Below the pieces are notes generated by a model. That model worked only from the letters and a program-made list of their open reading frames with translations, made no database searches and was not told the origin of the DNA. The position numbers were made by a program, and so were the translations under genes. Below are positions 44,840-45,325 of a DNA stretch of 64,000 bases, one piece after another. Position 1 is the first letter of the stretch; each line of letters starts with the position of its first letter. Source of the DNA: Escherichia phage WPEC1; the sequence record PV659873.1, one strand, 5' to 3'.

Positions 44840-45325
44840 ATGCTTAAAATGAAAACAGGTAATCTTATTGATGCCGCTAAAGCAGGTGAAGTAACTGTTA
44901 TTGCTCATTGTTGTAATTGTATGTGTAATATGGGGGCAGGTATTGCCCCACAAATAAAATATGCGTTTCCATATGCATACGAAGCAGATTTAGCTACAGG
45001 AGCAGGAAACCAGAAAAAGCTTGGTTCTTTTAGTTTAGGAGAACCAGAAGATTATCCTAATCCTATGGTATACAACCTTTATGGACAGTATCGTTATGGA
45101 TATAATAGTAAAGGTCGTCAACTAGATTATGATGCGCTGTATGATGCTCTTGCAGCTATGGCAATGGACTTACACAATTACGATAAAGGAGATCAACCAG
45201 CACATAAGATTGGTCTACCTATGATAGGTGCAGGGCGTGCCGGAGGTAATTGGGCTATCATTGAAGTCATGATCAAAGAAACTTTAGTAAAAGCTGGTCA
45301 CGATGTGACTATTTATAAACTTTAA
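44840..45325 (+). CDS. macro-domain protein (ADP-ribose binding / hydrolase family)
   Basis: 161 aa; TVIAHCCNCMCNMGAGIA and GLPMIGAGRAGGNWAII resemble macro-domain glycine-rich loops. Confidence 0.55.
   Translation: MLKMKTGNLIDAAKAGEVTVIAHCCNCMCNMGAGIAPQIKYAFPYAYEADLATGAGNQKKLGSFSLGEPEDYPNPMVYNLYGQYRYGYNSKGRQLDYDALYDALAAMAMDLHNYDKGDQPAHKIGLPMIGAGRAGGNWAIIEVMIKETLVKAGHDVTIYKL

Follow-up and report, generated by a model that had tools for sequence, protein, structure and literature searches.

Macrodomain protein of a Phapecoctavirus-type Escherichia phage: a predicted Gln-type ADP-ribose hydrolase with a candidate role in counter-defence

Escherichia phage WPEC1 carries a small macrodomain gene, which raises the question of which ADP-ribose derivative its product would act on and which host defence this would help to overcome. 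The gene occupies positions 44840..45325 (+ strand) of the window, the term used here for the whole 64,000-nucleotide stretch of sequence record PV659873.1 that was analysed. Genes of this macrodomain family rank among the most frequent accessory genes in large lytic phages, therapeutic phages of E. coli and Klebsiella among them, and a homologue is present in 2,348 of 50,697 phage records. The substrate of a given copy, either ADP-ribosylated DNA (DarTG) or NAD breakdown products (aRES/NARP1), helps to predict the defences that are overcome. The copy in the window is a useful test case because it occurs without NARP1, so that an anti-DarTG2 effect is expected and an anti-aRES effect is not. 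The domain is already annotated in GenBank and both candidate functions have been described for homologues; as both are published, no new principle is added. A literature search found no experimental study of any Stephanstirmvirinae macro gene. Two loose ends are modestly interesting, namely a hypervariable active-site residue and the location of the gene within a Ter-type module carried by the phage. Its orphan status with respect to NARP1 is a further point of interest.

The macro gene runs from ATG to stop and encodes 161 aa. A Shine-Dalgarno-like AAGGA (44829..44833, + strand), read from the sequence, lies 6 nt before the ATG, with the stop codon of the upstream phosphoribosyltransferase (PRTase) gene (44825-44827) just 5' of it; the macro gene begins 12 nt after the PRTase gene. 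By blastn, Escherichia phages WPEC2, WPEC4, and WPEC6 match window positions 42700-46700 with 100% identity. About 70 Phapecoctavirus-type relatives were also found, and dozens of myoviruses are 90–98% identical over this segment. The macro gene is therefore phage-encoded, as the initial annotation had proposed, and the window belongs to a Phapecoctavirus-type E. coli myovirus. The order of the window relative to WPEC2 is scrambled in blocks by blastn, and an exact-substring match fails. A ~150-bp "repeat family" was rejected as biology, as TRF returned many different units, all with a period of 77, which suggests k-mer overlap artefacts. In GenBank the WPEC2 copy is labelled "hypothetical protein, Macro_SF superfamily", and orthologues are annotated as "phosphatase" or "putative macrodomain protein".

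The ORF is a genuine, conserved gene encoding a macrodomain. The phrog_335 profile matches the protein with E=9e-53, and 277 protein clusters match it at E<=1e-5 (best E=4e-104). The Pfam PF01661 score is 21.6 bits (E=2.3e-4), where the cutoff is 22.0, and the match covers profile positions 2-112 of 118; a precomputed PF01661 assignment is present on most homologues at 40–55% identity. A single-sequence phmmer search of the PDB identified SCO6735 (2e-12), BT1257 (3e-8), DarG (5e-5), and TARG1 (1.5e-3), while a profile built from 39 family members identified BT1257 (9e-24), SCO6735 (6e-20), TARG1 (2e-18), DarG (3e-11), and Poa1p (5e-11). An AlphaFold2 model generated from a 34-sequence alignment (pLDDT 93.6, pTM 0.90) predicts a three-layer α/β/α macro fold. 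All 50 matches listed by Foldseek against the PDB are macrodomains or designs based on them; the best solved structures are TARG1 (E=2e-11, TM 0.88), BT1257, Poa1p, DarG, and SCO6735, with TM scores of 0.73–0.88. The macrodomain assignment made in the initial annotation is thus borne out by PDB sequence matches, the phrog_335 profile, a confident model, and Foldseek, with PF01661 just under its cutoff.

The predicted active-site residues are H23, N26, G32-A-G34-I-A36, N79, Y81, Q83, and G130-A-G132-R133-A134-G-G136-N-W138. Residues H23, N26, C27, G34, A36, D50, G62, N79, Y81, Q83, Y97, P127, G130, G136, and W138 are invariant in the family. N26 and the glycine-rich motifs G32-x-G34-I-A36 and G130-x-G132-x-A-G-G136 are found family-wide, and TARG1, SCO6735, and Poa1p have these motifs at the aligned positions (the TARG1 and Poa1p sequences compared are identical to PDB 2LGR and 6LFQ). 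Q83, which is invariant in 39 sequences, aligns with Gln85 of SCO6735, and N26 aligns with Asn27; SCO6735 numbering was counted via alignment to PDB 5E3B, which has a 20-residue tag. Where TARG1 and DarG have their catalytic Lys (K84 and K80, respectively), SCO6735 has Gln85 (PMC9411070). The Gln at the TARG1-K84 position, together with N26, therefore makes the window protein a Gln-type member of the ALC1/TARG1-like class.

SCO6735 strips DarT-made thymidine-linked ADP-ribose from DNA and rescues cells from DarT (PMC9411070). Its activity is abolished in the Q85A variant, and thymidine-ADPr-DNA hydrolysis is nearly abolished by N27S (PMC9411070). The extended "mobile loop" that follows the catalytic Gln aligns without gaps between the two proteins (QYRYGYNSKGRQLDY / QHGMKTGSKGAPVRY), including an S-K-G motif. 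Val25 has been called a feature specific to SCO6735 (PMC9411070); the equivalent position is Cys24 in the window protein and C, Q, or G across the family, so the Val/Ile feature does not extend to these proteins. The position of TARG1 Asp125 is occupied by Ala134.

The residue preceding Ala134 is unusual. R133 (codon CGT at 45236..45238, + strand) lies in the second glycine-rich loop, which is the diphosphate/distal-ribose loop. Among 12 Phapecoctavirus orthologues that are 77–98% identical, residue 133 is L, H, Y, F, or R, with Arg in the window, whereas it is Leu in 32 of 32 outgroup sequences. No other site in the aligned orthologues has this pattern of hypervariability in the clade only. 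Residue 133 corresponds to TARG1 L124 and Poa1p I151, and directly precedes the position of TARG1 D125 and Poa1p F152. Diversifying selection at the substrate pocket is one possible explanation of its variability.

Two recently characterised members of the family provide the candidate functions. Adpp of Vibrio phage Gary dephosphorylates NAD-derived ADPR-1''-phosphate, allowing the NAD+ reconstitution pathway NARP1 to overcome the RES-domain defence aRES (bioRxiv 10.64898/2026.01.28.702374). Tk.4 of T4 is AdfM, and T4 becomes sensitive to DarTG2 in E. coli when the gene is knocked out (bioRxiv 10.1101/2025.11.20.689424). The initial annotation offered two readings, reversal of ADP-ribosylation-based defence or processing of NAD-derived signals. 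Both have experimental precedent in members of the same family, Tk.4 and Adpp, and in SCO6735, and by analogy either may apply to the window protein. Two further systems were considered and rejected as not relevant: NARP3 is made up of PnuC and NadR, without a macro, PRTase, or HAD component, and the ICP1 AdfB "antitoxin mimic" is a 77-aa DarT binder without a macro domain.

The window protein was also considered as a DarG and rejected. With 161 aa it lacks the C-terminal DarT-binding domain, and DarG models match in their macro part only, PADLOC at 1.5e-9 over positions 1-144 of 329 and NCBIfam at 2.7e-8 over positions 2-147 of 338. Its score against the NCBIfam DarG equivalog is 33.5 bits, far under the cutoff of 250. 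No darT was found beside the macro gene, whose neighbours are the PRTase_3 gene and a gene for a 73-aa membrane protein. Similarity to DarG models was discarded as a means of discriminating between roles, as Gary Adpp and T2 Tk.4 score the same as the window protein. Mobile-loop charge was discarded likewise, since the anti-DarT2 factor Tk.4 itself has a loop that is short and non-basic. The active-site motifs are the same in Gary Adpp (a phosphatase), SCO6735 (a DNA glycohydrolase), and the window protein, hence sequence cannot separate the DNA-hydrolase role from the phosphatase role. Given these shared motifs, enzymes of the family may well carry out both activities.

It is highly likely that the window protein is an active macrodomain hydrolase directed at ADP-ribose and that the phage uses it to counter host defence. 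The catalytic activity, substrate, and defence-evasion role that we infer are those of a stand-alone macrodomain hydrolase of the SCO6735/Tk.4/Adpp type, with Gln instead of Lys at the TARG1-K84 position. Such a protein would bind the ADP-ribose moiety and cleave whatever sits on C1'' of the distal ribose. During infection it would serve as a counter-defence enzyme: by freeing the thymidines of replicating phage ssDNA from DarT2-type ADP-ribose, it would allow replication to go on. By analogy with these relatives, there is about an even chance that an AdfM-type job, the removal of DarT2-made thymidine-ADP-ribose from phage DNA, is the main one of a stand-alone counter-defence hydrolase. This role is favoured because the WPEC2 genome lacks NARP1 and the Gln/Asn active site is as in SCO6735. 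Since the two characterised enzymes have the same active-site motifs, the protein would very probably also share the activity of Adpp and dephosphorylate soluble ADPR-1''-phosphate.

Several further observations bear on an AdfM-type role. The macro fold with its ADP-ribose-binding motifs and the match to the macro part of DarG models speak for it. On the other side, the nearest characterised relative by identity is Adpp (38–39%) and not Tk.4 (34%), and relatives at 45–50% identity lie beside Nampt/Namat-like and Prs/Adps-like genes. Also against it, the DarG-model match is common to Adpp and T2 Tk.4, and Val25 of SCO6735 is Cys24 in the window protein.

The genomic context of the wider family was surveyed in 80 related viral loci, which form 65 groups at 90% identity. 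In 17 of the 65 groups, at least one NAD/ADP-ribose-type neighbour, checked by Pfam, is encoded within 4 kb of the macro gene. These neighbours comprise Nampt/Namat, Prs/Adps, SIR2, NADAR, YAcAr-SLOG, and NMNAT-Nudix, and several relatives at 45–50% identity are neighbours of Nampt/Namat-like and Prs/Adps-like genes. The PRTase_3/HAD/TerC context occurs in 4 of 65 groups, and neither type of context in 44. The macro family is thus enriched in NAD-centred islands, but it is more often stand-alone, as in T4 and the T2 locus examined. The 44 groups without a NAD/ADPR neighbour fit an autonomous enzyme. PRTase_3 and NARP-type genes were never found beside one and the same macro gene in the 65 groups.

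The immediate neighbourhood in the window is of a different kind. Genes from 42744 to 46613 lie tightly packed on one strand, beginning with a 201-aa protein (phrog_22504; 42744..43349, + strand) with full-length matches to PADLOC AbiEi models. This is followed by a HAD-IA-type hydrolase (phrog_14393; 43351..44007, + strand), a conserved partner of the PRTase with weak similarity to YjjG-type nucleotidases. The ComF-like PRTase gene (44000..44827, + strand; PF15610 PRTase_3, 2.3e-41) shares 8 nt with the HAD gene and stops 12 nt short of the macro gene. A phmmer search of the PDB with the PRTase and the 201-aa protein gave nothing significant. Downstream of the macro gene are a 73-aa hydrophobic membrane protein (phrog_16065; 45338..45559, + strand), which is kept in this position in Stephanstirmvirinae, and a TerC/Alx-family membrane protein (45639..46613, + strand; PF03741 4e-40; TIGR03718 318 bits, above cutoff). 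After TerC, a consensus scan whose number of sites was not above chance found a terminator-like GC-rich hairpin with a T-run (46620..46637, + strand), which is likely to be the end of the transcription unit. NrdD/NrdG lie further upstream of the HAD-PRTase-macro block. The initial annotation had assigned the gene to a nucleotide-metabolism block with a PRTase-like gene as its neighbour, and the PRTase_3 match, the HAD gene before it, and NrdD/NrdG agree with this.

Ter systems are composed of PRTase, HAD, TerC, and TelA/vWA, and have been noted in some phages (PMC7824862; Aravind group, 2021). TelA and vWA genes lie a few kb downstream in relatives, and from their domain content the HAD, ComF-like PRTase, and TerC genes beside the macro gene are assigned to a Ter-type module. 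The macro gene apparently shares a transcript with this PRTase/HAD/TerC module, which hints at small-molecule chemistry and counts against an AdfM-type role. The HAD-PRTase pair itself is conserved in 156 phage records.

An Adpp-type role is the main rival reading. What we regard as possible, and only tentatively so, is that the main substrate is soluble ADPR-1''-phosphate, produced by RES-domain NAD+ phosphorylases such as aRES, or a related ADPR derivative. The enzyme would convert this to ADPR, either for detoxification or to feed an NAD+-rebuilding route. The 38% full-length identity to Gary Adpp (E=1e-31) and the identical active-site motifs argue for such a role, as do the structural match to Poa1p, the 17 of 65 locus groups with NAD/ADPR-type genes within 4 kb, and the finding of aRES in E. 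coli (bioRxiv 10.64898/2026.01.28.702374). However, the Gary protein is encoded between Adps and Namat, and no homologue of either was found in the window or the complete WPEC2 genome (best E=0.25). Adpp is known to matter in one pathway only, and that pathway is therefore missing. Nor are any NARP2- or NARP3-type genes (Nampt, NMN adenylyltransferase, PnuC, NadR) annotated in the WPEC2 genome. In the published NARP1 mechanism ADPR is useful only as a NARP1 substrate (bioRxiv 10.64898/2026.01.28.702374), so ADPR alone would not restore NAD+.

A pathway partnership with the adjoining genes is unlikely. The PRTase and HAD are the predicted signal-synthesis arm of Ter systems, and the macro enzyme could act on a ribosylated or phosphoribosylated small molecule that they make, with TerC as the membrane component. 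The order HAD-PRTase-macro-TM-TerC is kept across Phapecoctavirus and Justusliebigvirus, the genes are packed on the same strand with an 8-nt overlap and 12-nt gaps, and the terminator-like hairpin appears only after TerC. The Ter composition reported from some phages and the mutual exclusion of PRTase_3 and NARP-type genes as neighbours of the macro gene also fit. Against this, the HAD-PRTase pair has no macro gene beside it in any of three distant phage lineages (Xanthomonas, Rhizobium, Brevundimonas), and none of 23 bacterial loci has a macro gene beside PRTase_3. The CR8 orthologue, which is 53% identical, has no PRTase or HAD beside it. Linkage of macro to PRTase-HAD-TerC is seen only in Stephanstirmvirinae-type loci (L001, L007, L014, L017-L019), and synteny inside one phage subfamily is weak evidence for a pathway shared with the PRTase and HAD. 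It is quite unlikely that HAD, PRTase_3, and macro, with TerC/Alx, form an unrecognised phage pathway for ADP-ribose-derived or phosphoribosylated metabolites. In one variant, the pathway would rebuild NAD+ or destroy a signal by a route without homology to NARP1-3, with macro supplying ADPR from ADPR-1''-P and the PRTase replacing the Namat/Nampt step. If such a pathway existed, the hypervariability of residue 133 would be the mark of a continuing arms race against a host factor. The pathway would fit three observations, namely PRTase_3 and NARP-type genes being mutually exclusive neighbours of the macro gene, a Rhizobium phage NMN adenylyltransferase/Nudix gene two genes from the PRTase, and the tight operon-like layout of the block. 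A housekeeping role is very improbable. By analogy with TARG1/OARD1, a structural match that is an O-acyl-ADP-ribose deacylase, the enzyme could deacetylate O-acetyl-ADP-ribose or reverse ADP-ribosylation from a phage-encoded Sir2. WPEC2 does encode a Sir2-family protein (PF02146, 1.9e-22; WPEC2 108526-109341), and SIR2 lies within 4 kb of macro in 8 of 65 locus groups. However, the WPEC2 Sir2 gene is outside the window and not adjacent to the macro gene, and stand-alone macro genes also occur in phages without SIR2 within 4 kb of macro.

A crude neighbour-joining tree places the window protein with orthologues from Stephanstirmvirinae and Vequintavirinae; the Adpp clade is near and Tk.4 further away. 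Adpp is 38–39% identical (38% over the full length, blastp E=1e-31), has the same size, and shares the AH-x-CNC, GQ, and IG-x-G-L-AGG-x-W motifs with the window protein. They differ at position 133, which is Leu in Adpp and Arg in the window protein, and in setting, as Adpp sits between Adps and Namat while the WPEC2 genome has neither. Tk.4 belongs to the same phrog_335-type family, also has Gln at the position of the catalytic Lys, and has a role known from its knockout phenotype. Like the window gene, it is a stand-alone gene of a lytic myovirus that lacks NARP1, and E. coli is the host species in both cases. The T2 protein, here assumed to be the Tk.4 orthologue, has 34% identity to the window protein across the alignment; T2/T4-like matches reach 38% over residues 21-142, and phage 133 "tk.4" 34.8% over 96% of the query. 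However, the loop that follows the GQ motif is shorter in Tk.4, the second loop of Tk.4 is IGKG rather than LAGG, and its genomic context is different.

Among solved structures, SCO6735 (PDB 5E3B) and BT1257 (2FG1) are the best sequence matches, and the equivalents of Gln85 and Asn27 are kept. The mobile loop of SCO6735 has the same length as that of the window protein, with S-K-G in both. Both are nonetheless bacterial chromosomal proteins with an identity of about 33%, and Val25 of SCO6735 is replaced by Cys24 in the window protein. TARG1/OARD1 and the DarG macrodomain have the same fold and class and are top Foldseek matches (TM 0.78–0.88), but their catalytic Lys (TARG1 K84, DarG K80) is Gln in the window protein and TARG1 D125 is Ala. 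Yeast Poa1p (PDB 6LFQ), an ADP-ribose 1''-phosphate phosphatase, is a structural match at E=2e-10 with His23 and Asn26 conserved at the same positions; it differs in its identity of 25%, the second loop INSGIFG, and a large insertion. Finally, PhiKZ gp104 AdfM is a phage macrodomain that removes thymidine-linked ADP-ribose (Cell Rep 2026, PMC13309987), and its active-site Asn (N23) aligns with N26 of the window protein. With 19% identity (pairwise E=0.003) it is nonetheless Lys-type and DarG-like, and hence belongs to a different subfamily from the Gln-type protein of the window.

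In the window, exact tandem duplications with two copies each occur more than a dozen times, at 9952-10106, 22994-27048 (twelve arrays), 29980-30290, 35123-35501 and 48973-49283. Their units are all different in sequence, while the period is exactly 77 nt (or 158/160 nt). As 77 is a typical k-mer size of assemblers, the duplications look like contigs that were concatenated with their overlaps retained. They also coincide with the junctions of blocks that are rearranged in the window relative to the complete genome of the relative WPEC2. Mis-assembly has probably affected both the window and the records of the WPEC2/4/6 type.

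Two gene-level features are located at such repeats. Neighbouring tRNA-Gln(ttg) genes (24544-24616 and 24621-24696) fall in a 77-bp exact duplication at 24533-24687, and the pair most likely reflects an error of assembly, not a true duplication of the gene. The SprT-like ORF (48239-49033) enters a junction repeat at ~48824, and its final stretch looks like nonsense sequence. Genes for TelA, annotated as tellurite resistance, and a vWA protein come after SprT in the relative EF1-1; the TelA-like gene of WPEC2 has moved away to 138810-139958. The contig JAEZZU010000022.1 (L095) is deposited as 'MAG: Proteobacteria bacterium'. It carries the block of the 201-aa protein, HAD, PRTase and macro genes with 77–100% protein identity to the window, and is almost certainly a Phapecoctavirus contig that was wrongly binned into a bacterial genome.

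Within the macro protein, residue 133 of the active-site loop (codon at 45236-45238) is Leu, His, Tyr, Phe or Arg among Phapecoctavirus orthologues that are 77–98% identical, yet Leu in all 32 outgroup sequences. Among the sequences compared, this is the sole site of the protein which varies within the Phapecoctavirus orthologues while being constant in the outgroup.

SIR2 genes often neighbour phrog_335-type macro genes in other phages (8 of the 65 de-duplicated groups of viral loci), and WPEC2 (PV691511.1) encodes a Sir2-family protein (PF02146, 1.9e-22) at 108526-109341, equivalent to L011:26527-27342 and outside the window. In Rhizobium phage RHph_TM21B (L005, 4308-6425), a gene annotated as 'bifunctional NMN adenylyltransferase/NUDIX hydrolase' lies two genes past the HAD-PRTase_3 pair, a gene order that hints at a connection of the ComF-like PRTase with NAD metabolism in some phages.

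The TerC protein (45639-46613, + strand) scores 318 bits against TIGR03718, above the curated cutoff, which assigns it by sequence to the Alx subfamily of metal-homeostasis membrane proteins; it is a host-like auxiliary gene kept throughout the Stephanstirmvirinae. The 201-aa protein (phrog_22504; 42744-43349, + strand) gave no match in a Pfam search and is matched over its full length by the PADLOC AbiEi antitoxin models (8e-13 and 1e-11). Among the loci compared, its gene is found in those of Phapecoctavirus type and is absent from those of Justusliebigvirus. The gene may serve in counter-defence against AbiE, as an orphan antitoxin-like gene.
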